NCBI GenBank assembly: GCA_036374915.1
Contig: DASUSU010000156.1
Coordinates: 1-37,507 of the forward strand
Length of the DNA stretch: 37,507 bases
Source: Acidimicrobiia bacterium
GTDB lineage: Bacteria; Actinomycetota; Acidimicrobiia; Spongiisociales; ZC4RG35
Direction: 5' to 3'
The notes under the pieces were generated by a model. That model did no database searches and was not told the origin of the DNA. It worked only from the letters and a program-made list of their open reading frames with translations. Shown in pieces: positions 3,111 through 32,944 of this stretch (the first letter of the stretch is position 1; every line of letters begins with the position of its first letter). Both the position numbers and the translations under genes were made by a program.

Positions 3111-3737
3111 TCAGTCCCCGTGCGGGCGGTCGTCGGCGCCGCGGCCAACCACGAACCAGATGGCGTGCACCGGCTCGTCGCCGAGGTTGAACAGACGGTG
3201 CGGCTCGGTCGAGTCGAAGGCGATCGAGTCCCCCGGCTCCAACTCGTAGACCTCGAATCCCAGCTGGATCCCCATCCGCCCCTTCACCACGTACCCATAC
3301 TCTCGCCCGTGGTGGCGCATCAGGGACTCGTCCGGCGTCGATGCCCCTCCGACCTCGTAGATGGCATGGAGGAAGTCGACCCCCTCTTCGGTGTCGGCGG
3401 TGAGCTGCTCCCATTTCACACCGGAGGCGAGATCGATCGCCTTGCGGTCGGCCGGGTGGACCAGGGGGCGGCCACGGGCTCCGCCACCGTCGAGGCCGGG
3501 CCCCGGCTCGTCGCGCCCAGCGTGATCGTCGCCGCGCAGCAGCTTGTCGAGAGAGAGGTCGAGCTCGGTCACTATCGCGTAGAGAGTCCCGACCGAGGGC
3601 TTGGAGAGCCCGCTCTCCAACTGGGAGATGAGGCTTGCCGACAGACCGAGACGGCGCGCCAGCTCCCGCTGGCTGATGCCGGCCTTGGTTCGCTCGGTCC
3701 GAAGCCGCTCACCAATCCCGTCGAGTTGCTCAGTCAT
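3111..3737 (-). CDS. XRE-family HTH transcriptional regulator with C-terminal cupin domain (PuuR-like architecture)
   Basis: N-terminal HTH (ISQRELARRLGLSASLISQLESGLSKPSVGTLYAI) plus a cupin core (GREYGYVVKGRMGIQLG...YELEPGDSIAFDSTEPHRLFN). Confidence 0.85.
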   Translation of the reverse strand: MTEQLDGIGERLRTERTKAGISQRELARRLGLSASLISQLESGLSKPSVGTLYAIVTELDLSLDKLLRGDDHAGRDEPGPGLDGGGARGRPLVHPADRKAIDLASGVKWEQLTADTEEGVDFLHAIYEVGGASTPDESLMRHHGREYGYVVKGRMGIQLGFEVYELEPGDSIAFDSTEPHRLFNLGDEPVHAIWFVVGRGADDRPHGD

Positions 3738-14281: not shown

Positions 14282-14325
14282 GTCGGCTGCCTCGATTCTG
14301 GTCCGGCCACTGTAATCCCGGTTGT

Positions 14326-14341
14326 CTGAATCGTCATTCAG
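14326..14341. promoter_or_regulatory. island palindrome site: CTGAATCGTCATTCAG (perfect 6-bp arms)
   Basis: Lies in the 189-bp divergent region, 45-60 nt upstream of the GcvT-like start. A minus-strand TACAGT -10-like hexamer sits 11 nt downstream of it. Confidence 0.6.
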
Positions 14342-14450
14342 GTTTGGCTCGCACCCGGTCCACAGCCCCGCTCCCAACGACCGTGGAGATGGCACGTGTC
14401 CCGATTCGACGCATCGGTCGGCTCGAGGGGATACATTCCCGAGGTCAAAC

Positions 14451-14466
14451 CTGAACGGAGAGTCAG
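14451..14466. promoter_or_regulatory. island palindrome site: CTGAACGGAGAGTCAG
   Basis: Ends 4 nt before the ATG (14471) of the ABC substrate-binding gene and overlaps its RBS. Identical to site 29473-29488 at 14 of 16 positions. Confidence 0.5.
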
Positions 14467-14470
14467 AGTC

Positions 14471-19077: not shown

Positions 19078-20054
19078 CCCCGCTGGTGGAAGTCGATGAC
19101 CTCCACGTCCACTTCGGGGAGGCTCGAGCCGTCGACGGCGCCTCGCTCCAGGTCATGCCGGGGGAGGTGCTCGCACTCGTCGGCGAGTCCGGCTCGGGCA
19201 AGACCACGCTGATCCGGGCCATCCAGGGCCTGCAGCCGCCCACGTCGGGGACGGTGACGGTGGAAGGGCAGCCTCTCGACGCCAAGAGGAAACGTGAGAT
19301 CCAGACCATCTTCCAGAACCCTGCGGTCCAGATGGTGTTCCAGGACCCGACCGGGGCGCTCAACCCGCGGCAGACCATCTACGAGATCGTGGCCGAAGGT
19401 CTCAGGATCCAGCACAGCAAGGGTGACGAGAAGGCGCTGGTGGCCGGAGCCCTCTCCCGGGCCGGCCTCCGGCCGCCGGAGCGCTTCTTCCAGTTCTATC
19501 CCCACGAGATATCGGGAGGACAGCGACAGCGTGTCGTCATCGCCGGAGCCATGGTGATGGAGCCCCGTCTCCTCCTCGCCGACGAGCCGGTGGCCAGTCT
19601 CGACGCTTCCATCCGTGGCGAGATCCTGGCTCTCATGCGACATCTGGTCGACGAGACCGGGCTCGCAATCCTGGTGGTCACCCATGACCTCGGTCTGGCA
19701 TGGAACATCGCCGATCGGGTGGCGGTGATGTACCTGGGCCGGATCGTCGAAACCGGGCCCACCGAGCAGATCCTGGAGGATCCCAAGCACCCCTACACCC
19801 GGGCGTTGCTCTCGGTGGTGCCCGAGACCAAGGAGATGGAGCAGCAGATCCTGGTCGGGGAGATCCCCGACCCGGCACGCATCCCGTCCGGCTGCCGATT
19901 CCACCCCCGTTGCCCGCTGCTCCAGTCGGGCACCCTCCCCGACTCGATCGCATCCCGATGCCCCGCCGACGATCCGGGACCGGTCCCGGGCGATGCCGTG
20001 TCAGCCGCGGCCTGTTGGGCGGTCCCGTCGGCTCAGCGGGCTCACACCATGTAG
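19074..20054 (+). CDS. ABC transporter ATP-binding protein (DppF/OppF-like)
   Basis: ATGA overlap. GESGSGKTT, ISGGQRQRV and LLADEPVASLD motifs. Confidence 0.9.
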   Translation: MTPLVEVDDLHVHFGEARAVDGASLQVMPGEVLALVGESGSGKTTLIRAIQGLQPPTSGTVTVEGQPLDAKRKREIQTIFQNPAVQMVFQDPTGALNPRQTIYEIVAEGLRIQHSKGDEKALVAGALSRAGLRPPERFFQFYPHEISGGQRQRVVIAGAMVMEPRLLLADEPVASLDASIRGEILALMRHLVDETGLAILVVTHDLGLAWNIADRVAVMYLGRIVETGPTEQILEDPKHPYTRALLSVVPETKEMEQQILVGEIPDPARIPSGCRFHPRCPLLQSGTLPDSIASRCPADDPGPVPGDAVSAAACWAVPSAQRAHTM

Positions 20055-21205
20055 GAGCGGACCGGGTCTTCCTCACCGAGGATGGGTCGGTCGGCCGCGA
20101 AGGGAGCGATGTCGTGGGGGGTCCCCCCGTCGAGGGCGAGGTCGGTGAGGATCCGGCCCAGCAGTGAGGCGAACTTGAAGGCGTGGCCCGCCCCGACCGC
20201 GGTGTAGACGTTCTCGGTCCCCGGCACCCGGTCCACGACGAAGTCGCGGTCCGGGGTCAGCGTGTAGAGACAGGTCTTGGCCAGATGGACCGCGCCGGAC
20301 GCCCCCGGGAGATGCCGCCCGACGAAACGTCGCACCCCGTCGGTCACGTCGGCCCTGGGCTCGAAGCTGCGAGTGTCGGGGTCGGTGACGATCTCGCATC
20401 GGTCCCAGGCGATCTTGACCGCGGGCTCGCCGAAGACCGGGAAGCCGTAGAAGGACGGCTCGTCCATCCAGATCCAGATCGGGAACCGGGACGGTGCGAA
20501 CAGATTCGGGTCGGCCGACTTCAGATAGACCACCTGCTCCAGAGTCACCTCGAGCGGGAACCGCACCCCGAGCATGCCCAGCACCTGGTTGGTCCATGCC
20601 CCGGCGGCCACGATCAGGGAACCGACCCGGTGCGCCCTCCCCTCGATGACGATCTCCACCTCGCCGTCGACCTCCCGGACTCCGCCGACCGTGGCATGGT
20701 CGAGCAGGGTCGCCCCGCGCTCGACGGCGAGCCGGCGATGGGCCGCATTGGCTCGTGACGCCATGGCAATCCCGGAGCTCTCCTGGAACAGGGCGGTGAC
20801 ATCGTCGTCGAGATGCCACTGGGGCCATCTTCTCATCACCTCGCCGGCATCGAGCTCCTCGAAGCGGACCCCGGCGGTGGTCATCGAGGAGCGGTAGTCG
20901 TCGAGGCCTATCGATGCCCCGGCCGGGGCGAGATCCAGTCCTCCTGTCTTCAGCACCAGCTGCTCGCCGGAGTCGGCCTCGACCTGTTCCCACGACCGGT
21001 ATGCGGCCCTGGCCAGCTCCACGTAGACGGGGGTGTGGTAGGAGAGCCGGATGATCCGGCTGTGGTCCTCCGAGCCGCCCCGGGCATGTCCCGGCTCGAA
21101 CTGCTCGACCCCGAGGATGTCTTTCCCCAGGCGCTGAGCCGCCCAGTAGGCGGCTGCGCTGCCTATTCCGCCGAGACCGAGCACAGCCACCCGGTAGTCG
21201 GTCAC
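20042..21205 (-). CDS. monomeric sarcosine oxidase / N-methyl-amino-acid oxidase family flavoprotein (MSOX/SolA-like)
   Basis: VAVLGLGGIGSAAAY FAD fold, GGSEDHSRIIR, a KTCLYTLTPDRDFVVD segment containing the Cys used for covalent FAD in this family, and GAGHAFKF. GTG start overlaps the upstream stop (GTGA). Confidence 0.8.
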   Translation of the reverse strand: MTDYRVAVLGLGGIGSAAAYWAAQRLGKDILGVEQFEPGHARGGSEDHSRIIRLSYHTPVYVELARAAYRSWEQVEADSGEQLVLKTGGLDLAPAGASIGLDDYRSSMTTAGVRFEELDAGEVMRRWPQWHLDDDVTALFQESSGIAMASRANAAHRRLAVERGATLLDHATVGGVREVDGEVEIVIEGRAHRVGSLIVAAGAWTNQVLGMLGVRFPLEVTLEQVVYLKSADPNLFAPSRFPIWIWMDEPSFYGFPVFGEPAVKIAWDRCEIVTDPDTRSFEPRADVTDGVRRFVGRHLPGASGAVHLAKTCLYTLTPDRDFVVDRVPGTENVYTAVGAGHAFKFASLLGRILTDLALDGGTPHDIAPFAADRPILGEEDPVRSYMV

Positions 21206-22302
21206 ATCAGCTCATCGAGATAGCGCCGGATGTCCTTCGAGTAGTCCTCCATCGGGGCGTAGAAGCCGGTGGTGAACCGACGCGAGCTCATCCCTCGCTG
21301 AACCGACTCGCACACCTTCCAGTCCTGCCGGTTGACCAAGTCCCAGAAGTCGACCGCGTCGGACGGGTCGAAGTCGGGGCGGCTCATCTCGTCACGATGG
21401 AACAGGAAGTCGCAGACCACGGTGGTCGACCCGGGGCCCCGGGGCCACAGGGTGAAGGCGGCGACGTGGTCGGCGGAGAGGCTGAGCATGAGATTGGGGT
21501 AGACCAGCTGGCCCTTGTGCCTCTCCTGCTCCTCGGGACTGAGCCCGGGGAAGGGCCGACGGTTGCTGGTTCCGCTGGCAGTGAAGGTCCAGGCGCCGTC
21601 CCGATGGGGTATCCCGCCTTCCCAGTCGAGATCCGAGCCCCCGCGGCGGCGAAATGCGGGTACCAGCTCGACCAGTTCCGGGTGAACCGGTCCGCAGTGA
21701 TAGCACTCGTTGTAGTTCTCCACGATGGCCTTCCAGTTCGACTGAACCGGGTAGACGATCCGGGCGGCCACCCTCAGGTCGGTGAGCGGGTAGTTGGCGA
21801 GGTAGGACTCCGTCTCCTGGAATTGGGTGGCCAAGGGAGGAGCCTGGTCGGGGGAGAGATTGACCCAGACGAAACCGCCCCAGGTCTCGATGCCGACGTG
21901 GTGGAGGGGGAGGTCCTCCTTGCGCAGGCCGTCGGATTCGTCGAGGAAGGGGGCGGCTCGAAGCCTCCCGTCGAAGGAGTAGGTCCAGGCGTGATAGGGG
22001 CATTGGATCGAGCCCTGGAACCGACCGGAGGCGCCGATCCGGGTTTGGGAAGGCTTGCCCACCGCGTCGGTGAGCTGCGAGCCGCGATGACGGCACAGGT
22101 TGATGTAGGAGACGAGCTCACCGCTGCGGTCCCGGGTGACCAGCACCGACTCCCCGGCCACTTCGCAGACCAGGTGATCACCCGGCTCGGGCACCTCCTC
22201 CACGCGCCCGACGCAGAACCACTGCGTCGAGAAGACACGGTCCACCTCCCGGGCGTACCAGTCCGCCTCCACGTAGCAGTCGCGATGAAGGGTCGGATCC
22301 AC
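21202..22302 (-). CDS. Rieske [2Fe-2S] non-heme-iron oxygenase, alpha subunit (GbcA/CntA/Stc2-like N-demethylase group), copy 1
   Basis: Rieske CRHRGSQL...CPYHAWTY and catalytic ENYNECYHCGPVHPEL. GTG start at 22302. Confidence 0.85.
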   Translation of the reverse strand: MDPTLHRDCYVEADWYAREVDRVFSTQWFCVGRVEEVPEPGDHLVCEVAGESVLVTRDRSGELVSYINLCRHRGSQLTDAVGKPSQTRIGASGRFQGSIQCPYHAWTYSFDGRLRAAPFLDESDGLRKEDLPLHHVGIETWGGFVWVNLSPDQAPPLATQFQETESYLANYPLTDLRVAARIVYPVQSNWKAIVENYNECYHCGPVHPELVELVPAFRRRGGSDLDWEGGIPHRDGAWTFTASGTSNRRPFPGLSPEEQERHKGQLVYPNLMLSLSADHVAAFTLWPRGPGSTTVVCDFLFHRDEMSRPDFDPSDAVDFWDLVNRQDWKVCESVQRGMSSRRFTTGFYAPMEDYSKDIRRYLDELM

Positions 22303-22315
22303 CGGCGGAGATTAC

Positions 22316-22331
22316 TTGAACGGTGGTTCAG
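22316..22331. promoter_or_regulatory. island palindrome site: TTGAACGGTGGTTCAG
   Basis: The 15-mer 22317-22331 is identical to 25578-25592. It lies 13 nt upstream of the Rieske-1 start and includes the stop codon of the CocE/NonD gene. Confidence 0.65.
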
Positions 22332-24319
22332 GCCCACTCTCTGGGGATCGTCTCCTCCCAGGTCCTGGAGAAGACTTCCCGTTCGTCGTGAGCAGCGTTG
22401 AGCACGATGACGAGACGGAAGTTGGCATCGTCACCGGTCAACTCGAGGCTGCCCTTGGTGCTCACCTTCCAGCCGGTCCGCTCCAGGGTCACCTCACCGT
22501 CGGATCGAGCCCGGGTCGAGGTCGGATCGTCCTCGGAGACGCTGATCGACCAGGTCTCGTCGGAGGTGTAGGTGAGCCCGGACCGCTCCGGCAGCTCTTG
22601 ACGCGAGTAGCGGTGGCGTTGGTAGGTGACGGTTTCTCCGTTGCGGAGCACCCGGGCGTGGCTCCGTTCCTCGTCGACCAGCCCGGGGGGAGACGGGGGA
22701 GGGGGCGCCGCGGGGATCGGGAGGGTCCCGGCATCGTCTCGCATCGGGACCGTGGGCAGGAGGAGCCGGGACCGGTCCGGGTCGACGTCGAGGGTGAAGC
22801 CGGCACCAGGTGGCCATACCACCGGGAAGTCGGCCCCGGCCAGGGCGAGTCTCAGCTTCCAACCCGGAGCCAGGACCGCCGAGGTCGCCATCAAGGGGAA
22901 GCGGACCGTCATCGGCCGGCCCGGGGACACCGGGACGGGATGGGACAGATCGTCGGGGAAGACGAGATTCCGGTTCCCCCGTGTGATCAGGTGCCCGACA
23001 CCATCGGGCGAGACCGCGGAGAGCCGCGCCGCGATCATGCCCACCGCAGCGCTGCTCGTGACCGTCACCTCCACCTCGGGCGTGCCCAGGATCTCCACCG
23101 GCTCCTCGAGCGGCGTCGTCTCGAAGCTGATCGACCGGGCGTCGTCCTCGCTGGAGTCGGTGCTCCCCGTCCCGGCCCGATCCCAGGCGGGGGCGTGGAG
23201 ACCGACCGTCTGCGGGCCCGACCAGGTTCGGTTGTGATGGCGGGTGGCGGCCAGCGGGATCTCGAGCAGGGTGCGGTCGGTCGGGGGCCAGGATGCCTCC
23301 GACCGCCAGTGCCCCGAAGTGGGCGGATGGTCGAATGGAGGTCGGGTCGGTCCGTCGAAGGGCGCCCCGGTCCGGATGAAGACGGTGAGGGCGGGCATGT
23401 CCATCACCCCGTTGTCGTCGCCGCGCAGATGGTGCCCGAACCATCGGGCGAGGAGGTCGAGATGATCGAGGGTGGGGCCGGGACATCCGGTGGCCGGCCG
23501 ATAGTGCCCCCAGGGGCCGATCACGGTGCGGGTGGGGCAGGTCAGGTGCTCGGCGAGGGCCAGCATCCCGTCCACGTAGCCGTCGACCCAGCCCCCGATC
23601 AGCAGCGTCGGGCACTGGATTGCGGAGTAGTCGGCGCAGGGCGAGCCGTGCAGCCAATATTGGTCGCGGAACTGGTGGCGGAGCCAGGTCCCCGGCCATT
23701 GCGGTGTCCTCTCCAGACGGTCGATCCATTCCTCGAACCATCCCTCGCCGACGATGTCGGGGTCGGGAGGGAGGGCATTGCACAGCACCATGGAGGGAGG
23801 CCAGTCCACCTGCTCCTGGGCGTGGAGCGATCCGCCGGTGTAGTGGACGTCGCAGGCGAAGCGATCGTGGGTGGCGTGGACCGGGGCGATCGCCTTGAGC
23901 CGGGCAGGTCGCAGCATCGCGGTCTGCAGTGAGCTGAATCCTCCCCACGACACCCCCCACATCCCCAGATTCCCGTTGCACCACTCCTGGCCGGCCAGCC
24001 AGTCGAGCACCGCCAGCGTGTCTTGTTGCTCCCGTGGCACGTACTCGTCGGCGATGATCCCGGTCGAAGCCCCGGTGCCCCTGATGTCGATGCGGACGCC
24101 GGCGAAACCCCGCTGGGCCAGATAGGCGTAGGTCGACCAGTCGGGGGAGTAGAAGGCGTCGTCCTTGCGGTAGGGGAGCGACTCGACCACGGTCGGATAG
24201 GGCCCGTCGTTGTCGGAGTCGGGCTGGTAGACGGTGAGGGCGATGCGGGTTCCGTCGTCCATGGGGACGAACACCCGGCGGTCGATGCGGACCGGGTACT
24301 CCGGTGTCTCCTCTGGCAC
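22328..24319 (-). CDS. CocE/NonD family (X-Pro dipeptidyl-peptidase S15-like) alpha/beta hydrolase
   Basis: VFVPMDDGTRIALTVYQP, IDIRGTGASTG, and nucleophile elbow GMWGVSWGG. The listed 828-aa ORF is trimmed to the in-frame GTG at 24319 (VPEETPEY). The start is less certain than the family. Confidence 0.8.
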   Translation of the reverse strand: MPEETPEYPVRIDRRVFVPMDDGTRIALTVYQPDSDNDGPYPTVVESLPYRKDDAFYSPDWSTYAYLAQRGFAGVRIDIRGTGASTGIIADEYVPREQQDTLAVLDWLAGQEWCNGNLGMWGVSWGGFSSLQTAMLRPARLKAIAPVHATHDRFACDVHYTGGSLHAQEQVDWPPSMVLCNALPPDPDIVGEGWFEEWIDRLERTPQWPGTWLRHQFRDQYWLHGSPCADYSAIQCPTLLIGGWVDGYVDGMLALAEHLTCPTRTVIGPWGHYRPATGCPGPTLDHLDLLARWFGHHLRGDDNGVMDMPALTVFIRTGAPFDGPTRPPFDHPPTSGHWRSEASWPPTDRTLLEIPLAATRHHNRTWSGPQTVGLHAPAWDRAGTGSTDSSEDDARSISFETTPLEEPVEILGTPEVEVTVTSSAAVGMIAARLSAVSPDGVGHLITRGNRNLVFPDDLSHPVPVSPGRPMTVRFPLMATSAVLAPGWKLRLALAGADFPVVWPPGAGFTLDVDPDRSRLLLPTVPMRDDAGTLPIPAAPPPPSPPGLVDEERSHARVLRNGETVTYQRHRYSRQELPERSGLTYTSDETWSISVSEDDPTSTRARSDGEVTLERTGWKVSTKGSLELTGDDANFRLVIVLNAAHDEREVFSRTWEETIPREWA

Positions 24320-24356
24320 GGCGGGACAATATCGAAGCTGGTTATCGTCGCCGCCG

Positions 24357-25565
24357 ATGCCCGCCGCCGCCTCACCCCGTCGAGTGATCGTGGTCGGGGC
24401 CGGGGTCGCCGGTCTCACCGCGGCGCGGCGGCTGACCGAACAGGGGGTCGAGGTGCTGGTGCTCGAGGCGAGGAGCCGGGTCGGGGGCCGGGTCTGGTCG
24501 CACCGGCTTCCCAACGACGAGATCGTCGAGTTGGGCGGGGAGTGGATCTCCACCTCCCAGACCCCGGTGATCGAGCTCGCCGCCGAGCTCGGGCTCGGTC
24601 TCGTCGACACCGGGATGGATTTCATCACACGCGATCCGGTGGGTGGCCCGGTCATCCCCGACGACGAGCACGAGCGTCTTGGACGAGCCCTGGCCGCGCG
24701 CATGGAGGAGCTCGGGCCCGAGCGGTTGGCGGAGATGACCGTGGCCGACCTGCTCGCCGGGGTCGAACAACCGGGGGCGGCCGGGGTGGTGCTGCGCTCC
24801 CGTCTCGCCGGCACCGCCGGGGCGCAGCTCGACCAGGTCTCGGCCGGGGAGATCGGCGAGGAGTTCGGGGTGGGAGACCAGGGTTCCTACGTCCGGATAG
24901 ACGGCGGCAACGACCGGCTGGCCAAAGCCCTCGCCGCAGGTCTCGAGCTTCGTCTCGACACCGAGGTCGTCTCGATTCAGCAGCGGGTCGCTGGAGTCGG
25001 CGTAGCCACGAGGAACGAGGAGCTCGGGGCGGAGGCCGTGGTCCTTGCCCTTCCGCTGCCCGTCTTGAGACGTCTGGTCTTCGAGCCGGCCCTCCCCGAC
25101 GACTTGGCCCTGGCCCTCGATCGCCTCCGCATGGGGAAAGGGGTCAAGGTGGCGGCGCCCACCGGCGAGGAGCCGCCGATGTTCCGGAGACAGGACACCG
25201 ACATTCCCGCCTGGTATTGGACCGGGCTCGAGCCGACCGGGTCGGTGCGGAGAGCGGTGACCGGGTTCGCCGGCACCGGGCCGGGGGTGACGTCCCTGCT
25301 GAGCGAGACGATGGCCAGGCTGGCCAGGGCGGCGCCGGAGGTCGGTCTGGGCGTCCCCGTCGTCGCCGACTGGGTCTCCGATCGGTTTGCCGGAGGGTCG
25401 TATTCGGTGATCGGGCCCGGTCAGCGTGGTCTGCTCGAGTCGCTTGCCCGACCCTGGGGGAGGGTGTTCTTCGCCGGCGAGCATGTCAACGGGTCGGGAA
25501 CCATCGTCGGAGCGATCGAGAGCGGCGAGGCTGCGGCGACCCGTCTCCTCGCCACAGTCCTCTGA
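24357..25565 (+). CDS. flavin-containing amine oxidase family protein
   Basis: RRVIVVGAGVAGLTAARRL...VLEARSRVGGRV and C-terminal FFAGEHVNGSGTIVGAIESG. Trimmed to ATG 24357. Confidence 0.85.
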   Translation: MPAAASPRRVIVVGAGVAGLTAARRLTEQGVEVLVLEARSRVGGRVWSHRLPNDEIVELGGEWISTSQTPVIELAAELGLGLVDTGMDFITRDPVGGPVIPDDEHERLGRALAARMEELGPERLAEMTVADLLAGVEQPGAAGVVLRSRLAGTAGAQLDQVSAGEIGEEFGVGDQGSYVRIDGGNDRLAKALAAGLELRLDTEVVSIQQRVAGVGVATRNEELGAEAVVLALPLPVLRRLVFEPALPDDLALALDRLRMGKGVKVAAPTGEEPPMFRRQDTDIPAWYWTGLEPTGSVRRAVTGFAGTGPGVTSLLSETMARLARAAPEVGLGVPVVADWVSDRFAGGSYSVIGPGQRGLLESLARPWGRVFFAGEHVNGSGTIVGAIESGEAAATRLLATVL

Positions 25566-25576
25566 GCGCAGGTTTT

Positions 25577-25592
25577 CTGAACGGTGGTTCAG
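25577..25592. promoter_or_regulatory. island palindrome site: CTGAACGGTGGTTCAG
   Basis: Perfect CTGAAC/GTTCAG arms. Lies 50 nt upstream of the ALDH GTG start and 10 nt upstream of a TAGCGT -10-like hexamer (25603-25608). Confidence 0.65.
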
Positions 25593-25642
25593 TCGCCGGT
25601 GCTAGCGTCCAATCACACCGATCCCATCACCTGGAGGCGGGT

Positions 25643-27082
25643 GTGAAACAGCTCTACATCGACGGCAAATGGGTCGACCCGCGCTCCGGGGAGAGCTTCG
25701 AGACGCTGAACCCGGCCACCGGCGAGGTCCTGGAAGTGGTCGCGTCGGCCGGTCCCGACGATGCCGCCGCCGCGGTAGCCGCGGCGCGGCGGGCGTTCGA
25801 CGACGGCACCTGGGGGGCGCAGTCGGCGCCGCGGGATCGCTCAACCCTGTTGTTCAGGGTGGCCGAGATCATCCGCCGCGACCGTGACCGGCTCGCCGAA
25901 CTGGAGACCCTGGACAACGGCAAGCCGCTCGGCGACTCGTATTGGGACGTGGACGAGGCGGCCTACATGTTCGAGTACTACGCCGGCTGGGCGACCAAGG
26001 TGATGGGCTCGATCCCGCCGGTGGGCCCGGAGGCGATGAGCCTGGTGATCAAGGAGCCGGTCGGTGTCGCCGCCCTGATCACGCCGTGGAACTACCCGAT
26101 CCTGATGGCGAGCCAGAAGGTCGCACCCGCCCTCGCCGCCGGCTGTACCGCCATCCTCAAGCCTGCCGAGCAAACCCCGCTCACCGCCCTCGAGCTGGCC
26201 CGCATCCTCGAAGAGGCCGGCGCGCCGCCCGGAGTGTTCAACCTCCTCACCGGTTTCGGCCCCGAGGCCGGGGCGCCCCTGGTCGCCCATCCCGGGGTGG
26301 ACAAGGTCTCGTTCACCGGCTCGGTGGAAGTGGGCAAGATCATCTCCCGCTCGGCATCGGACACTCTGAAGCGGGTGACCCTGGAGCTGGGCGGGAAGTC
26401 ACCGAATCTGATCTTCGCCGACGCCGACTTCGCCTCGGCGGTCGAGGGCACCTGCGCCGGGATCTTCGCCAACGCCGGTGAGATCTGCTCGGCGGGGAGC
26501 CGGGTGCTGGTGGACAAGGCGATCTACGACGACGCGGTGGCCGCGATGGTCGACAACGCGGCCCGGATCAAGGTAGGCAGCGGGCTCGACCCGGACACCA
26601 CGATGGGACCCCTGATCTCCTCCGAGCACAAGGAAACCGTGCTCTCCTATGTCGGGTCGGGCCGGGAGACTGCGGAGGTGGCCTATGAAGGCTCGCTTCC
26701 CACCGACCCAGGTCTATCCGGCGGCTATTTCATCCCGCCCACCATCTTCACCGAGGTGGCCAACGACGCCACGATCGCCCGCGAGGAGATCTTCGGGCCG
26801 GTGATGGCGGTGATCCCGTTCTCCGACGAGGACGAGGCGATCCGGATCGCCAACGACACCAGCTACGGGCTGGCCGCCGCGGTGTGGACCTCGGACGTGA
26901 AGCGGGCGATGAAGGTGGCCCGGGGGATCAGGGCCGGTGTGGTCTGGGTCAACGACAGCCAGCCGGCGCCGACCGAGTCGATCTGGGGCGGGTACAAGAC
27001 CTCGGGGGTGGGGCGCGAGCTGGGCCCCTGGGGCATCGAGTCGTATCTCGAAGAGAAGCAGATCTACCTCAACCTGGGATGA
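25643..27082 (+). CDS. NAD(P)-dependent aldehyde dehydrogenase (betaine-/aminobutyraldehyde-dehydrogenase-like)
   Basis: GTG 25643 lies 5 nt after GGAGG. Motifs ITPWNYP, FTGSVEVGK, LELGGKSP and catalytic GEICSAGSR. Confidence 0.9.
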   Translation: MKQLYIDGKWVDPRSGESFETLNPATGEVLEVVASAGPDDAAAAVAAARRAFDDGTWGAQSAPRDRSTLLFRVAEIIRRDRDRLAELETLDNGKPLGDSYWDVDEAAYMFEYYAGWATKVMGSIPPVGPEAMSLVIKEPVGVAALITPWNYPILMASQKVAPALAAGCTAILKPAEQTPLTALELARILEEAGAPPGVFNLLTGFGPEAGAPLVAHPGVDKVSFTGSVEVGKIISRSASDTLKRVTLELGGKSPNLIFADADFASAVEGTCAGIFANAGEICSAGSRVLVDKAIYDDAVAAMVDNAARIKVGSGLDPDTTMGPLISSEHKETVLSYVGSGRETAEVAYEGSLPTDPGLSGGYFIPPTIFTEVANDATIAREEIFGPVMAVIPFSDEDEAIRIANDTSYGLAAAVWTSDVKRAMKVARGIRAGVVWVNDSQPAPTESIWGGYKTSGVGRELGPWGIESYLEEKQIYLNLG

Positions 27083-28248
27083 GCAGCCTCCTCACCACCG
27101 CCGAGCTGGCACTGCAGGACCGGGCCCGTGCCTTCGTCGACGAGTTGATCCCCTGGGAGGTGGAGGCCGAGATGAACCGGGGAGAGATCCCCGAGGACGT
27201 GCTCACCGGGCACAAGGAGAAGGCCCGGGAGCTGGCGCTCACCTCGATCAACATGTCGGAGCGGCTCGGCGGCCCCGGGTACGGAATGCTGGCCCAGGTC
27301 CTGATCCAGGAGCAGACCGGTCGGGTCACCAATGCCCTGGGCTGGGTTGTGTCGACCGGGCCTTCCTGGATCGAGGAGGTGGCCACCGACTTCCAGATCG
27401 AGAGGTGGATCCGCCCCACCGTCTCCGGCGACATCCACGAGTGCTACGCCATCACCGAGGAGCGGGCCGGATCGGACGTGGACGGGATCGAGGCCACGGC
27501 GCGGCGTGACGGCGACGACTACGTCCTCAACGGGGTCAAGTGGCATGTCACCTCGGCCAATCTCGCCTCGTACGTGTTCTTCCAGGCCAAGTTGGCCGAT
27601 GGCCCCAATGCCGGGCGTCATGTCCTCTTCTTCGTCGACATGGACACGCCGGGCGTGGAGTGCGTCCGGGTCCCCGAGTACACCCATACCTACAGCCACC
27701 ATCACTGGGAGATGAGCTTCACCGACGTCCGGGTCCCGAGCGAGAACCTGGTGGGCAGCGAAGGCGACGGGATGAGCTTCTCCCATGCCTGGTTTCGCTA
27801 TGAGCGGCTGATGATCGCGGCCCGGTGTTGCGGGGCGGCGGAGCGTCTCATCACCGAGGCCACGAATTTCGCCGAGGAGCGCCAGGCGTACGGGTCGAGG
27901 ATCGCCGACTACCAGGCGATCCAGTTCATGCTCGCCGACTCCCTGACCGAGCTGTGGGCGGCACGGCTGATGACCTACGAGACGGCCCGGGCCATCGACG
28001 CCGGGGTCGACGTCAAGGTCCAGCACGCCCAGTGCTCCATGGCCAAGTTGTACGCCTCGGAGATGGCGAACCGGGTGGCCGACCGGGCGGTGCAGATCTT
28101 CGGCGGGCGTGGGTTCATGCGGGAGAACGTCGCCGAGCGCTTCTACCGCGAGCTCCGCGTCGATCGCATCTGGGAAGGCACCTCCGAGATCCAACGCCTC
28201 ATCATCGCCGACCAACTCCGCAAACGCGGGGTGGGGCCCCTCACCTGA
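27079..28248 (+). CDS. acyl-CoA dehydrogenase family flavoprotein
   Basis: ATGA overlap with the ALDH stop. Motifs YAITEERAGSD, FGGRGF and IWEGTSEIQ. Confidence 0.85.
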   Translation: MSSLLTTAELALQDRARAFVDELIPWEVEAEMNRGEIPEDVLTGHKEKARELALTSINMSERLGGPGYGMLAQVLIQEQTGRVTNALGWVVSTGPSWIEEVATDFQIERWIRPTVSGDIHECYAITEERAGSDVDGIEATARRDGDDYVLNGVKWHVTSANLASYVFFQAKLADGPNAGRHVLFFVDMDTPGVECVRVPEYTHTYSHHHWEMSFTDVRVPSENLVGSEGDGMSFSHAWFRYERLMIAARCCGAAERLITEATNFAEERQAYGSRIADYQAIQFMLADSLTELWAARLMTYETARAIDAGVDVKVQHAQCSMAKLYASEMANRVADRAVQIFGGRGFMRENVAERFYRELRVDRIWEGTSEIQRLIIADQLRKRGVGPLT

Positions 28249-28254
28249 ACGCGG

Positions 28255-29433
28255 TTACCTCAGCTCGCGGGTGGGGACTTCTGGCACCACGAGGCCCTTG
28301 CCCTGGTAGGCGTGGGCGATGATGTTGAGGAATTGGTAGACGGTTCCTTCCCAATTGCTCAGGGGACCGGGGCGGTAGCCACGATTCTTCACCCCGCGCA
28401 TCACCGACTCACAGGCCGCCCAATCCTCACGGTTGGTGATGTCCCAGAAGTCGACCGCATAGGCGGGGTCGAACCCGTCGCGCTCGAACGCCTCCGGGGG
28501 GAAGAGCCAGGAGCACTCGATCTGGGTCTGGTCGACCGAGATCGGGGTGAGTCGATGGGTCATGACGTAGTCGGGATGGAGCGAAAGGAGGAGGTTCGGC
28601 ATCACCGTCAGGTACCACACCTGGCGGGCCAGCTCGTCGTCCACGTTGCGGAACCTGACCCCGTTGGACGCTCCGTCGAGGGACATGGTGACTGCGTGAG
28701 GCTTCAGCTCCATGGTCCCGCCACACCACATCCCGGTCGGAACGTGGTCGTAGCCGCTGTCGGGAGGGGTCACCTCGCACAGCTCTGGGTGGATCGAGGA
28801 GCAGTGGTAACACTCGTTGTAGTTCTCGATGATGATCTTCCAATTGGCGTCGACCACGTACGAATGGGTGGCGGCGGTGACCAGTCGCTCGGTCTCATAG
28901 GGGGCGGCGATCTCGGCGAGATTGCCGAAATGGCCCTCGATCGGCTGTGCCTTCCCGGACAGGTCGATCCAGACCCATCCCCCGTACACCGCGACCCCGA
29001 GATCGATGAGCGGGTAGTCGGCCATGTCGAGGTTGTCGCTGCGGGTGAATTTGGGAGCGGTGCGCAGACTCCCGTCGAACCGGTAGGCCCAGCTGTGATA
29101 GGGGCAGCGGATCTGACGGGCATCGAAGGCGTCCCCGATCGGCGCCAGCTCGTGGCCGCGATGACGGCAGACATTGGAGAAGGCGCGCAGCTCCCCGCCG
29201 GGGTCCCTGCTCAACAGCACGCCCTCGCCGCCGACTTCGATCGCCCGCAGCTGTCCCGGGCCGACCAGCTCGTCGAGGCGCCCCACGCAGTTCCAGGTCT
29301 CCTGCCAGAGGTGCTCTCGCTCCCACGCCAGCACATCGGCGGAGAGGTAGGCGTCGGCGGGGAGGGTGAGGCTCGAGCCGAAGACGTCGAGCACCCTCGT
29401 GATCTGATCCTGATCGAGTGGTGCCGGTCTCAT
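28255..29433 (-). CDS. Rieske [2Fe-2S] non-heme-iron oxygenase, alpha subunit, copy 2 (paralog of 21202-22302)
   Basis: CRHRGHEL...CPYHSWAY and ENYNECYHCSSIHPEL. ATG 29433 is preceded by GGAGAG. Confidence 0.85.
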   Translation of the reverse strand: MRPAPLDQDQITRVLDVFGSSLTLPADAYLSADVLAWEREHLWQETWNCVGRLDELVGPGQLRAIEVGGEGVLLSRDPGGELRAFSNVCRHRGHELAPIGDAFDARQIRCPYHSWAYRFDGSLRTAPKFTRSDNLDMADYPLIDLGVAVYGGWVWIDLSGKAQPIEGHFGNLAEIAAPYETERLVTAATHSYVVDANWKIIIENYNECYHCSSIHPELCEVTPPDSGYDHVPTGMWCGGTMELKPHAVTMSLDGASNGVRFRNVDDELARQVWYLTVMPNLLLSLHPDYVMTHRLTPISVDQTQIECSWLFPPEAFERDGFDPAYAVDFWDITNREDWAACESVMRGVKNRGYRPGPLSNWEGTVYQFLNIIAHAYQGKGLVVPEVPTRELR

Positions 29434-29468: not shown

Positions 29469-29492
29469 TATCCTGAACGACGAGTCAGGATA
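29469..29492. promoter_or_regulatory. island palindrome site, extended form: TATCCTGA-ACGACGAG-TCAGGATA
   Basis: Perfect 8-bp arms in the 77-bp divergent region. The core CTGAACGACGAGTCAG is 29473-29488. It abuts a minus-strand TACACT -10-like hexamer (29470-29465). Confidence 0.65.
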
Positions 29493-29510: not shown

Positions 29511-30875
29511 ATGTCCCCCGGGGACGGGCAAGTCTCGGCTCTCGACGACTTGATCGCAAGCGAAAGGCGCCATTTCCTGGAACGGGCGCCGAAGGCCACC
29601 GAGATGGGCGCTCGCGCCAGTCGGTCGCTGGCCGGAGGGGTCACCTCGAGCTGGCAGATCTCGGATCCTCAGCCGATCTGGATAGATCGGGGACTGGGAT
29701 CCCGGGTCTGGGACGTCGACGGCAACGAGTACGTCGATCTTCACGGGGGATACGGTGTGATGCTCGCCGGGCACGCCCACCCGGCGGTGGTTGCGGCGGT
29801 CTCGGATCGGGTCCGCAAGGGCACCCACTTCGCCCAGCCGACCGCCGACGCCATCGTCGTCGCCGAGGAGCTGTCGGCCCGATACGGTTTTCCCCTGTGG
29901 CGGTTCGGCAACTCGGGCACCGAGGCGACCATGGACGCCATCCACCTGATGCGTGCCATCACGGGCCGTGACCTGATCATCAAGTTCGAAGGCGCCTATC
30001 ACGGGCACCACGACACGGTGATGGTCTCGGTCTGGAACGAGGAGGGCCTGGGCTCGGTGCACCGCCCCAGGAGCCTGGCCTCGGGGAGCGGGATACCCCA
30101 GGCCATGGTCGATCTCACCCTGGTGGCGACCTTCAACGACCTCGAGGTCGCCCGCGCCCTGTTCGAGGAGAACGAGGGAAAGGTGGCCGGTGTCATCATC
30201 GAGCCGATTCTGCAGAACTGTGGCGTGCTCCTTCCCCAGCCGGGCTTTCTCGAGGGTCTGCGCGATCTGGCCCACCAACACGACGCCCTGCTCACCTTCG
30301 ACGAGGTCAAGACCGGGCTTACCGTCGGCAAGGGCGGCGCCACCAAGCACTACGGAGTCCAGCCCGACATCGTGTGCCTGGCCAAGGCGCTCGGCGGAGG
30401 TCTCCCCATCTCCGCCATAGGCGGGAGCGAAGAGGTGATGGGCAATATCGCCGACGGGACCTATGAGCAGGTGGGGACCTTCAACGGCAACCCGCTCTCG
30501 ATGGCCGCGGCCAGGGCGATGCTCACCGAGGTGATGGTTGACGAGGCCTACCAGCACCTCGCCCACATCCAGAGCCGGATGGAGAAGGGTGCCAACGAAG
30601 TGGTGGGGCGTCACAGGCTGACCGCCCACGTCGCGACCGCGGGCGCCAAGGGAAGTGTGATCTACTGCGCCGAGCCGATGCGGACCTATCGCGACTTCCT
30701 CGCCGTCGATGGCAGGTATGCCCAGGCCGCCTGGCTGTACCAGTTCAACCGGGGCGTGTTTCTCCCTCCGTGGGGCAAAGGCGAGCAATGGCTCCTCTCG
30801 GTGCAGCATTCCGACGAGGACGTGGACCGCTATCTCGAGACCCTCGACGGCTTCGCCTCGATCATCGCCCAATGA
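29511..30875 (+). CDS. class-III (GSA-aminomutase-like) PLP-dependent aminotransferase
   Basis: ATG 29511 follows AAGGAAGGTGG. Motifs DVDGNEYVDLHGGYG, FGNSGTEA, FEGAYHG and FDEVKTG (PLP lysine). Confidence 0.85.
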   Translation: MSPGDGQVSALDDLIASERRHFLERAPKATEMGARASRSLAGGVTSSWQISDPQPIWIDRGLGSRVWDVDGNEYVDLHGGYGVMLAGHAHPAVVAAVSDRVRKGTHFAQPTADAIVVAEELSARYGFPLWRFGNSGTEATMDAIHLMRAITGRDLIIKFEGAYHGHHDTVMVSVWNEEGLGSVHRPRSLASGSGIPQAMVDLTLVATFNDLEVARALFEENEGKVAGVIIEPILQNCGVLLPQPGFLEGLRDLAHQHDALLTFDEVKTGLTVGKGGATKHYGVQPDIVCLAKALGGGLPISAIGGSEEVMGNIADGTYEQVGTFNGNPLSMAAARAMLTEVMVDEAYQHLAHIQSRMEKGANEVVGRHRLTAHVATAGAKGSVIYCAEPMRTYRDFLAVDGRYAQAAWLYQFNRGVFLPPWGKGEQWLLSVQHSDEDVDRYLETLDGFASIIAQ

Positions 30876-30899: not shown

Positions 30900-31961
30900 A
30901 TGAGCGGCGCCGTCGAACTGGTCGATTTGGAGAAGTGGTTCGGCGATGTCGCCGCAGTCGACCGAATCAGTCTTCGTATCGAGGATGGGGAGTTCTTCTC
31001 GCTGCTCGGACCGTCCGGGTGCGGCAAGACCACCACCCTCCGCCTGATCGCCGGGTTCGAGCGCCCCGATGCGGGGGCGATCATGATCGACGGGGCGGAC
31101 CAGGCGTCGATCCCGCCCCACAAACGCCCGGTCAACACCGTATTCCAGAGCTATGCGCTGTTCCCGCACATGGACGTGGCCGAGAACGTCGCCTTCGGGC
31201 TCCGCTACCAGGACGTCGGCAAGACCGAGGAGAGGGCGAAGGTGGGGGCGGCGTTGGAGCGGGTCCGGTTGACCGGGATGGAGAGTCGCAAGCCGACCCA
31301 GCTGTCAGGCGGGCAGCAGCAGCGGGTGGCCCTGGCCCGCTCTCTGGTGCTCAACCCTTCGGTTCTCCTCCTCGACGAGCCGCTCGGCGCCCTCGACGCC
31401 AAACTGCGCAAGGCCCTCCAGGTCGAGCTGAAGACACTGCAGGAGGACTTGGAGATCACCTTCATCTACGTGACCCACGATCAGGAGGAGGCCCTCACCA
31501 TGTCCGATCGGATCGCGGTCATGAGCGCAGGCCGGGTGGAACAACTGGGGACCCCTTCGGAGGTGTACGAGACGCCGACATCGAGTTACATCGCCGACTT
31601 CCTGGGGATCTCCAACCTGATGCCGGCGCTGTCCACCGGGCCGGGACGGATCGCCGTGGCGGGGCGGGAGATGACCTGTGTGCCCACCGGGGCAGTCAGC
31701 GGCGCGGTGACGGTCTGTATCCGGCCCGAGCGCGTCGAGCTGCACCCCCCGTCGTTCGTCGGGGACAACACCCTGTCCGGCGACATCGAGCGTGTGATCT
31801 ACGCCGGCGCCCTGCTCAACGTGCTGGTGAACATCGCCGACGTGGGCACGATCCAGGTCACCGTCCCGAATCAGGGCGCCGCCTTCGGCTTCGATTGGCC
31901 CGACCCTGTCGTCCTCCGCTTCCCCTCCGAGGCCCTGCGGATCGTTTCCACCGGCCCATAG
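30900..31961 (+). CDS. ABC transporter ATP-binding protein, PotA/CysA-like (no cognate permease or SBP adjacent)
   Basis: GPSGCGKTT, LSGGQQQRVALAR and LLLDEP motifs, plus a C-terminal TOBE-like regulatory domain. Confidence 0.85.
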   Translation: MSGAVELVDLEKWFGDVAAVDRISLRIEDGEFFSLLGPSGCGKTTTLRLIAGFERPDAGAIMIDGADQASIPPHKRPVNTVFQSYALFPHMDVAENVAFGLRYQDVGKTEERAKVGAALERVRLTGMESRKPTQLSGGQQQRVALARSLVLNPSVLLLDEPLGALDAKLRKALQVELKTLQEDLEITFIYVTHDQEEALTMSDRIAVMSAGRVEQLGTPSEVYETPTSSYIADFLGISNLMPALSTGPGRIAVAGREMTCVPTGAVSGAVTVCIRPERVELHPPSFVGDNTLSGDIERVIYAGALLNVLVNIADVGTIQVTVPNQGAAFGFDWPDPVVLRFPSEALRIVSTGP

Positions 31962-32899
31962 GCCGCGGTGAGATGCCGGCCGATCTCGGCCAGCATCGCG
32001 GCCAGTTCGGCAGGTTGGTCGACGGTGAACCGGAAGGGCAGCCCGAGCAGGTATCGGGCCAGCCAGCCGATGTCGTCGGCCCCGATCTCGAGTCGGCACT
32101 CCTCGGGCCCGAGATCCTCGAGGGCGCCCACCGTGGCGGGGATCATCCTGGTCGCCGACTCCAGCGGGGTGTGGAGACGCACGATCGCCCGGTGAGCCCA
32201 TGCCTCGATGGCGATACCGCGCTGCACCATCTCCACCGGGTCGGGCGCCTTGCGCTTGGCCGAGCGCATCCCGGTGGGCTTCGGGTCGTGCACCCGGTCG
32301 AGCCGGAAGGTGCGCCAATCGTCCCGGTCGAGGTCGAAGGCGACCAGGTACCAGCGCTGCCCGGTGTGGACCATCCGGTATGGCTCGGCATGTCGCTCGG
32401 TGCTGCGCATCTCGGCGTCGGTGTACCCGAATCGGATGCGGATGCCGCTTCGGATCGCCGAGGCGGCGATGGCGAGGGCGTTGTGGTCGACTCGGGCCGA
32501 CGGCTGTCTCGCTGTGCTGACGGTGGCCACCGACACGTCCTCGAGCCGGCTGCGGAGCCGGGGCGGGAGGACATGTTCCAGCTTGGCCAGGGCGGAGAGG
32601 GATGCATCCTCGAGCCCTCCCACCGCCGCGGTGGCGGCCACCCGGAGACCGACTGCCACGGCCAGGGCCTCCTCGTCGTCGAGCAGAAGCGGCGGGAGCT
32701 TTCCCCCGGCGCCGAGGCGATAACCACCGCCGGGCCCGGCCATCGCCTCCACGGGATAGCCGAGGGAGCGCAGTCTGGAGACGTCGCGACGGACGGTGCG
32801 CGGCGTCACTTCGAGACGCCGGGCCAACTCGTCGGCTGTCCAGTCGATCCTTCCCTCGAGCAACCCGAGCAGCTTCAGCAGTCGCTCCGCGCTGTCCAT
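31871..32899 (-). CDS. YafY-family transcriptional regulator (wHTH + WYL + C-terminal extension domain)
   Basis: ERLLKLLGLLEGRIDWTADELARRLEVTPRTVRRDVSRLRSLGYPV HTH, followed by a WYL-type core (RHAEPYRMVHTGQRWYLVAFD). The last ~30 codons overlap the antisense 3' end of the PotA-like gene. Confidence 0.85.
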   Translation of the reverse strand: MDSAERLLKLLGLLEGRIDWTADELARRLEVTPRTVRRDVSRLRSLGYPVEAMAGPGGGYRLGAGGKLPPLLLDDEEALAVAVGLRVAATAAVGGLEDASLSALAKLEHVLPPRLRSRLEDVSVATVSTARQPSARVDHNALAIAASAIRSGIRIRFGYTDAEMRSTERHAEPYRMVHTGQRWYLVAFDLDRDDWRTFRLDRVHDPKPTGMRSAKRKAPDPVEMVQRGIAIEAWAHRAIVRLHTPLESATRMIPATVGALEDLGPEECRLEIGADDIGWLARYLLGLPFRFTVDQPAELAAMLAEIGRHLTAAYGPVETIRRASEGKRRTTGSGQSKPKAAP

Positions 32900-32919: not shown

Positions 32920-32944
32920 ATTGCGGACCAAAGCTGTCCGCAAT
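32920..32944. promoter_or_regulatory. putative operator ATTGCGGAC-N7-GTCCGCAAT
   Basis: Perfect 9-bp inverted repeat, 21 nt upstream of the WYL regulator start, in the 83-bp divergent region. A third half-site CTTGCGGAG is at 32954-32962. Confidence 0.55.

Follow-up and report, generated by a model that had tools for sequence, protein, structure and literature searches.

The closest known counterparts of the regulatory site considered here include the operator boxes of BetI proteins. In Ruegeria pomeroyi, TetR-type BetI proteins bind palindromes that lie over the -35 and -10 elements of bet promoters (PMC12442346). The BetI1 box of that organism, ATTGACG*CGTCAAT, is 14 bp long, has abutting halves and covers the -35 element, and both BetI2 boxes have the flank AAACTTGAAC in common (PMC12442346). 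For E. coli, the betO sequence ATTGATTGGACGTTCAATATAA is given in a synthetic-biology primer (PMC7058928), and we located it in the native betI-betT gap as well; no operator sequence is given in PMC5934670 or PMC11007814. Here we analyze a palindromic 15-mer, TGAACGGTGGTTCAG, that occurs twice in a 37,507-nt stretch of DNA from an Acidimicrobiia bacterium (GenBank assembly GCA_036374915.1, contig DASUSU010000156.1, positions 1 to 37,507). This stretch, referred to below as the window, is contig C156 of an assembly of 2.76 Mb in 396 contigs with a GC content of 67%. We propose, with a probability of roughly 0.8, that TGAACGGTGGTTCAG is the operator of a homodimeric, BetI-like repressor of the TetR family, which would govern a multi-operon regulon for methylated amines. 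The best NCBIfam match of the candidate regulator is BetI itself (TIGR03384), over its full length and with an E value of 1e-23.

Conservation of the palindrome and its association with a TetR gene

An exact search of the window finds TGAACGGTGGTTCAG on the + strand at 22317-22331 and at 25578-25592, and the flanks of the two copies are unrelated to each other, in agreement with the first-pass annotation that had reported the repeat. The same annotation held a chance second copy to be negligible. That argument was post hoc and is weak, as 31 canonical 15-mers occur twice in the window, compared with about 10 in Markov-1 random windows of the same composition. TGAACGGTGGTTCAG is distinguished by being palindromic, intergenic at both copies and conserved across species, and since repetition alone proves little, the case for a site rests on these properties and above all on conservation.

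Both positions, designated O1 (copy 1) and O2 (copy 2), are kept in about 15-20 congeneric Acidimicrobiia, in which the arms TGAAC and GTTCA are constant and the 4-nt spacer is variable; comparative genomics thus bears out the earlier suggestion of a conserved regulatory site. The consensus is cTGAAC-N4-GTTCAg, an inverted repeat with a 5-4-5 layout. A symmetrized profile built from 130 distinct sites has C or T at position -1, arms with hardly any variation and G or C in the inner spacer. The pattern TGAAC-N4-GTTCA occurs 4 times in the present genome and about 92 times across 31 congeners, as against about 19 times for the reversed pattern. On this comparative evidence the site is very probably a conserved protein-binding operator. 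Both window copies have the spacer GGTG (22322-22325 and 25583-25586), most congeners have GGCG at both, and in one congener (G006) all four exact sites have GGCC. Such parallel changes within genomes hint at co-evolution of the spacer with its regulator, and could also have arisen by chance.

A further site recurs in congeners about 12.5 kb beyond O2, in the gap between a TetR gene and a divergent operon for an NDP-forming acyl-CoA synthetase and an enoyl-CoA hydratase. The TetR protein encoded next to the motif in one of these genomes (G023) combines a TetR_N domain (PF00440) with a BetI-type C-terminal domain (PF13977). In the present genome, an orthologue with 85% identity is encoded on contig C227 (3149-3748, - strand) and is flanked by two sites. 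The upstream one, TGAATCGCCGTTCA, lies 60 nt before the TetR start, between the TetR and synthetase starts, and the downstream one, TAAACCGCCGTTCA, lies about 25 nt past the TetR stop, upstream of a gene for a PotD-like binding protein. Two other genera of the family have TetR orthologues (63% and 47% identity) with a matching pair of flanking sites.

Scanning public genomes with the TetR alignment gave 80 loci of 93-43% identity, all from metagenome-assembled genomes of uncultured Acidimicrobiia/Actinomycetota, mostly from soil. In 65 of the 80, the 150 nt before the TetR gene or the 170 nt after it contain a site with at most 1 mismatch, and several loci scored as lacking one carry the symmetric variant TGAAT..ATTCA. 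In total, 101 motif matches fall in the 24.7 kb near the TetR gene and the remaining 457 kb contain 6, which makes them about 300-fold enriched near the gene; the reversed motif, used as a control, has 0 matches near the gene. Co-localization with the TetR gene is thus a direct observation, as are the sites and their conservation, and on this ground the protein that binds the operator is likely to be the BetI-like TetR protein of C227. By family analogy alone, and with less assurance, we would expect this protein to act as a repressor that a ligand releases from the operator. The records of many metagenome-assembled genomes with this Acidimicrobiia-type cluster (L058-L066 and L076-L083) are titled 'uncultured Acidobacteriota bacterium' and those of their close relatives Acidimicrobiia; the Acidobacteriota titles are probably a labelling error.

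An 18-nt position weight matrix trained only on foreign TetR-flanking sites was then applied to the present genome. It gave only 14 matches above 12 bits, and the maximum in a reversed-genome control was 13.7 bits. O1 ranks first (25.0 bits), followed at 24.5 bits each by C227:3109, O2 and a site at C149:3929 between two divergent aldehyde dehydrogenase (ALDH) genes, and then by C227:3806 (23.9 bits). Sixth is a further intergenic site of the window, O4 (window 14325; 21.1 bits), in the gap between a GcvT-like gene and an Opp-type gene; seventh is C305:7237 (16.5 bits), a doubtful match; and eighth is O3 (window 29472; 16.1 bits), in the gap between a second Rieske gene, Rieske-2, and an aminotransferase gene.

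Predicted promoters and the reach of the proposed regulon

O1 (22316..22331, tTGAAC-GGTG-GTTCAg) lies among genes of the - strand. Upstream is a CocE/NonD (S15) hydrolase gene (22328..24321, start GTG at 24321), whose stop codon is the TGA of an O1 arm, and downstream, as the first gene under O1, is Rieske-1 (21202..22302, GTG at 22302), a Pfam-assigned, GbcA-like Rieske oxygenase alpha subunit. The best NCBIfam match of Rieske-1 is GbcA, at 188.8 bits and so below the cut-off of 670. An MSOX/SolA-like oxidase gene (20042-21205, - strand) follows Rieske-1. The gap between CocE and Rieske-1, in which copy 1 lies, is 25 nt (22303-22327), with the CocE stop (tca, 22328-22330) inside the O1 arm, just as described in the first-pass annotation, whose gene calls hold. 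A predicted -10 hexamer, TAATCT (22309..22314, - strand), is found 2 nt downstream of O1 and 6 nt before the GTG.

Syntenic orthologues of Rieske-1 with 79-92% identity occur in about 20 congeneric species, and in most of these the upstream sequence reads, on the gene strand, ccTGAAC-N4-GTTCA-NN-TAnnnT-6 nt-ATG/GTG. At least 14 congeners have O1 in the corresponding position, with the spacers CCAC, CCGC, GACT, GGCG, GGCC and others, and the hexamer TAnnnT stands exactly 6 nt before the Rieske-1 start at 19 of 20 orthologous loci; the remaining one (L023) lacks a clear hexamer. Most of the loci that are without the palindrome or the CocE gene (L013, L014, L020 and L021) also retain TAnnnT at that distance. 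In actinobacteria, the -10 element of SigA promoters, TANNNT, is found at -6 to -13, and many mRNAs are leaderless (PMC6448022). From this rule and the conserved hexamer we infer that a separate, leaderless, internal promoter drives Rieske-1; O1 would occupy about -28 to -15 of it. The proposal of an internal regulated promoter or a roadblock at copy 1 accordingly finds comparative support, in the palindrome of at least 14 congeners and the adjoining hexamer at its fixed 6 nt. At L020 and L021 (genomes G004 and G010), the CocE stop and the TAnnnT hexamer with its 6 nt are kept and the palindrome has been lost or was never present. Since the leaderless signal stays where the palindrome is absent, the operator behaves as a separable module, and Rieske-1 at these two loci may escape TetR control. 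As this locus shows, a 25-nt gap has room for the predicted -10 element of a leaderless gene together with an operator and a stop codon.

O2 (25577..25592, CTGAAC-GGTG-GTTCAG) has perfect arms of 6+6 nt and is conserved in 15 species. Copy 2 lies 12 nt past the stop (25565) of a flavin amine oxidase gene (24358..25565, + strand, ATG at 24358) and 50 nt ahead of the GTG (25643) of a Pfam-assigned, BADH-like ALDH gene (25643-27082, + strand), the first gene under O2. Between them lie a predicted -10 hexamer, TAGCGT (25603..25608, + strand), 10 nt after O2, and the ribosome-binding site of the ALDH gene, GGAGG (25633-25637). The ALDH scores 566 bits against the NCBIfam BADH model, whose cut-off is 668.6, and its gene forms an operon (25643..28248) with that of a Pfam-assigned acyl-CoA dehydrogenase (ACAD; 27079-28248, + strand). 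The 15 species that keep copy 2 have in common the arrangement ggttttcTGAAC-N4-GTTCAg-9/10 nt-TA(C/G)CGT, then some 30 nt of leader ahead of GGAGG and GTG; in 14 of the 15 aligned species, the hexamer TA(C/G)CGT lies a constant 9-10 nt away from O2. We infer that, on the ALDH-ACAD promoter, O2 extends from about -36 to -23, and this spacing supports the -35 position that had been assigned to copy 2 relative to TAGCGT. A sigma-70 consensus scan gave no promoter matches, as expected for an actinobacterium of 67% GC.

In 14 relatives the amine oxidase ends at a TGA inside the O2 arm (...VF*). The window copy has an in-frame stop 5 codons before that of its relatives, and the ancestral frame is still open to the arm TGA (AQVF*; 25563-25580). 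The CocE and amine oxidase genes (GTG at 24321, - strand; ATG at 24358, + strand) diverge over 36 nt, 24322-24357. The sequence TATTGT stands 6 nt before the CocE GTG, and CocE too looks leaderless. No TGAAC-type operator is found in this gap, so the pair seems to lie outside the TetR regulon.

Two further sites in the window are also placed between divergent genes. O3 (29472..29489, CCTGAAC-GACG-AGTCAGG) has an imperfect right arm and lies in the 77-nt gap between Rieske-2 (28255-29433, - strand, start 29433), which like Rieske-1 is a GbcA-like Rieske oxygenase, and a class III aminotransferase gene (29511-30875, + strand, ATG at 29511). Its imperfect form, CCTGAAC-N4-AGTCAGG, is kept in nearly all congeners. 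O4 (14325..14342, TCTGAAT-CGTC-ATTCAGG) separates the GcvT-like gene (start 14281, - strand) from the Opp-type binding-protein gene (ATG 14472, + strand) and is conserved in at least two congeners, G023 and G004. A weak site at 14450..14467, CCTGAAC-GGAG-AGTCAGA, overlaps the ribosome-binding site of the binding-protein gene and is doubtful, with a matrix score of 12.3 bits, which is at control level. A sequence resembling it occurs at L136 and L142, and includes the GGAG of a Shine-Dalgarno element. Elsewhere in the genome, the doubtful match on C305 (L002; 7237-7254) reads TGAACCTCCGTTCA (C305:7239) or, on the - strand, cTGAACGGAGGTTCAcatcATG; it lies between two genes, joins the palindrome to a stop codon and a GGAGG ribosome-binding site, and may be genuine or due to chance. 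On C227 (1786-5885; L003), the neighbors of the TetR gene are the PotD-like SBP_bac_8 gene and a gene for a 681-aa NDP-forming acyl-CoA synthetase with CoA_binding_2, Succ_CoA_lig and ATP-grasp_5 domains. Both carry the operator, and in G023 the enoyl-CoA hydratase comes next.

These positions suggest how the system may work. When inducer is lacking, binding of a TetR dimer to O1 or O2 would mask the -35/spacer region and block RNA polymerase. The same dimer could also halt, as a roadblock, polymerases reading through from the upstream co-directional gene, because both sites stand directly at or after the stop of such a gene and no terminator intervenes. O3 would place Rieske-2 and the aminotransferase/ABC ATPase genes under control of this protein, and O4 the GcvT-like gene, perhaps along with the Opp importer. 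Additional targets would be the two divergent ALDH genes on C149, the regulator's own gene with the divergent acyl-CoA synthetase, and the PotD-like binding protein. The inducer that frees the repressor from its sites would presumably be the methylated or quaternary amine itself or an intermediate of the pathway.

GbcA-, BADH-, MSOX- and GcvT-like targets fit a BetI-type regulator, and as a set the predicted targets point to the catabolism of methylated or quaternary amines, not to the synthesis of betaine from choline. In an uncultured soil lineage of Acidimicrobiia, the predicted regulon joins catabolic genes that are otherwise unconnected, namely those for two GbcA-like Rieske oxygenases, for MSOX-, GcvT- and BADH-like proteins and for the ACAD, the aminotransferase, the importers and the synthetase, and it names a concrete pair of regulator and operator. 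Membership also helps to define the pathway: the NDP-forming acyl-CoA synthetase of C227 would be the CoA-activating enzyme that the ACAD of the window seemed to lack. The site itself is of a well-supported and ordinary kind and calls for no new regulatory principle.

Weighing other explanations

Several points weigh against the assignment to a BetI-like repressor. The TetR protein scores 83.9 bits against a BetI equivalog cut-off of 201.3 and is 26% identical to E. coli BetI; by these measures it is BetI-like but not a BetI equivalog, and its closest solved structures are unnamed TetR proteins from structural genomics. Its gene is on C227, a contig separate from the window in a fragmented assembly. 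The 5-4-5 layout is unlike the published 14-bp betI box, with the halves 4 bp further apart. The related genomes are non-independent samples. The left-arm TGA serves as a stop codon at O1 and, in relatives, at O2, and part of the arm conservation is therefore coding-driven; this role explains the conserved left flank, but not the conserved right arm. Finally, congeners also have a WYL regulator gene in synteny with the cluster.

The last point leads to the strongest competitor, in which the operator belongs to another factor and the TetR gene is merely one of the targets. Candidates would be the WYL/HTH_11 protein (31871-32899), the XRE-cupin protein (3111-3737) or a regulator as yet unseen. 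WYL homologues of 59-79% identity are present in the orthologous 20-kb stretches of most congeners, and XRE-cupin regulators such as PuuR control amine catabolism. Yet the matrix gives no score above -6.1 in the vicinity of the WYL gene and none above -1.3 around the XRE-cupin gene. The WYL gene is preceded by a perfect 9-nt inverted repeat of its own, ATTGCGGAC-N7-GTCCGCAAT (window 32920-32944), which bears no relation to the TGAAC motif and probably serves as the operator of that regulator. A WYL homologue accompanies only 2 of the 80 motif-bearing TetR loci, and no XRE-cupin homologue was found in the cluster stretches of congeners. We therefore consider control by another factor improbable. 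Rex was also set aside as a candidate: its operator, TTGTGAA-N4-TTCACAA, separates TGAA from TTCA by 4 nt, compared with 6 in the present site.

Palindromes at or just past stop codons, as both copies are, could instead act in RNA, as hairpins after the CocE and amine oxidase genes that stabilize 3' ends, terminate transcription or direct processing. The predicted hairpins are weak, with energies of -5.0 and -7.2 kcal/mol, and the symmetric arm variants TGAAT..ATTCA would keep their pairing. Compensatory changes of this sort cannot separate an RNA from a DNA reading, because symmetric changes in an operator look identical. The arrangement speaks against the RNA reading: the two copies are oppositely oriented relative to transcription, many members of the family lie in divergent promoter gaps and beside the TetR gene, and the sites keep a fixed distance to -10 hexamers. 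Single-arm mismatches are common, with the imperfect form of O3 retained in nearly all species. Moreover, there is no U-tract, a terminator scan of 22000-26000 gave no terminator-like site, and the sites have no Rfam match. A function as an RNA hairpin thus appears quite improbable.

The GAAC-N4-GTTC core of TGAACGGTGGTTCAG is also that of the actinobacterial LexA SOS (Cheo) box, TCGAAC-N4-GTTCGA, which has the same 4-nt spacing. The genome contains a separate class of this type, tCGAAC-AYRT-GTTCGa, to which 19 of the 49 GAAC-N4-GTTC matches, those with C/G flanks, belong, and which precedes genes for a DnaE2-like PHP polymerase, a DnaQ/GIY-YIG protein and HNH/13E12-like proteins. The present sites differ in having T/A in place of C/G as the flanking base and GC-rich spacers in place of AYRT, and they stand ahead of other genes, the catabolic genes and the TetR gene, so that identity with the LexA box is very unlikely. 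The roughly 16-19 canonical SOS boxes (C26:5137, C68:16362, C79:5620, C166:365, C189:775, C250:3781 and others) look like a LexA regulon in their own right, lying before the DnaE2-like polymerase gene, the DnaQ/GIY-YIG gene and several HNH/DUF222 (13E12-like) genes.

A chance repeat or a dispersed (REP/MITE-like) family, the latter among the outcomes that the first-pass annotation had named as fatal to its proposal, draws on the frequency of repeated 15-mers in the window but is effectively refuted by the conservation of position across about 20 species, together with the unrelated flanks, the mere 14 matrix matches above 12 bits and the finding that the 2.76-Mb genome contains no copy with 0 or 1 mismatch beyond these two.

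Operator spacing and the comparison with BetI systems

A possible relation of the present operator to the betI box is suggested by ten distant TetR loci of 45-47% identity (L119, L120, L122, L124-L126, L129, L130, L132 and L133). These carry cTTGACTGAACGTTCAGTCTAA upstream of the gene, a box that is identical to E. coli betO at 14 of 17 positions. In its fuller form, cTTGACTGAACGTTCAGTCTAAGAT, it is a 20-bp near-palindrome about 60-125 nt upstream of the TetR start and abuts a TAAGAT -10 element. The ten loci cluster together in the protein tree, and their helix-turn-helix and recognition helices match those of the group with the 4-nt spacing (N4). No intermediate spacings (N1-N3) were seen, and the E. 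coli BetI outgroup branch is too long to polarize N0 against N4 in the tree.

A tentative reading, which we regard as possible but rather unlikely, is that the present operator is a re-spaced betI box, with the same CTGAAC halves set 4 nt apart here and abutting (N0) at the ten loci. One TetR subfamily may use the same half-site at two discrete spacings. Another possibility is suggested by cTTGACTGAACGTTCAGTCTAAGAT, in which two N4-type sites can be seen to overlap, TGACT-GAAC-GTTCA and TGAAC-GTTC-AGTCt; both have an AGTCA-type arm on one side, as O3 does. Abutting boxes, classical betO included, may then consist of two such sites in overlap, each occupied by its own dimer. If true, either reading of the spacing would revise how BetI-type operators are read. 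A further tentative novelty, independent of the spacing, would be an inducer other than choline for a regulon that spans at least 6-7 operons of methylated-amine catabolism in uncultured soil Acidimicrobiia.

The better half of E. coli betO, GTTCAA, is the half-site of the present operator, and an alternative TGA-N8-TCA alignment of TGATTGGACGTTCA with TGAACGGCGGTTCA has 10 identities in 14 positions. A TTGAAC half-site is likewise contained in the BetI2 flank of R. pomeroyi, as in the present operator. That organism belongs to the Proteobacteria and its effectors are choline and choline-O-sulfate, whereas the protein considered here is from Acidimicrobiia and is known from its sequence.

E. 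coli BetI and the protein considered here both combine a TetR_N helix-turn-helix with a BetI-type C-terminal domain, both are associated with a palindromic operator in or beside the regulator's own divergent promoter, and the targets of both, which are predicted in the present case, belong to metabolism of the betaine type, here with the BADH-like ALDH. The present operator differs in the 5-4-5 arrangement of its arms, and in number: at least 6-7 operators are distributed over several operons, compared with one divergon in E. coli. Choline dehydrogenase (betA) and a BCCT transporter (betT) are absent from the annotated genes of the window. In E. coli, the bet targets betA, betB and betT serve the conversion of choline to glycine betaine, whereas the predicted targets here comprise GbcA-, MSOX-, GcvT- and BADH-like proteins, an ACAD and an aminotransferase.

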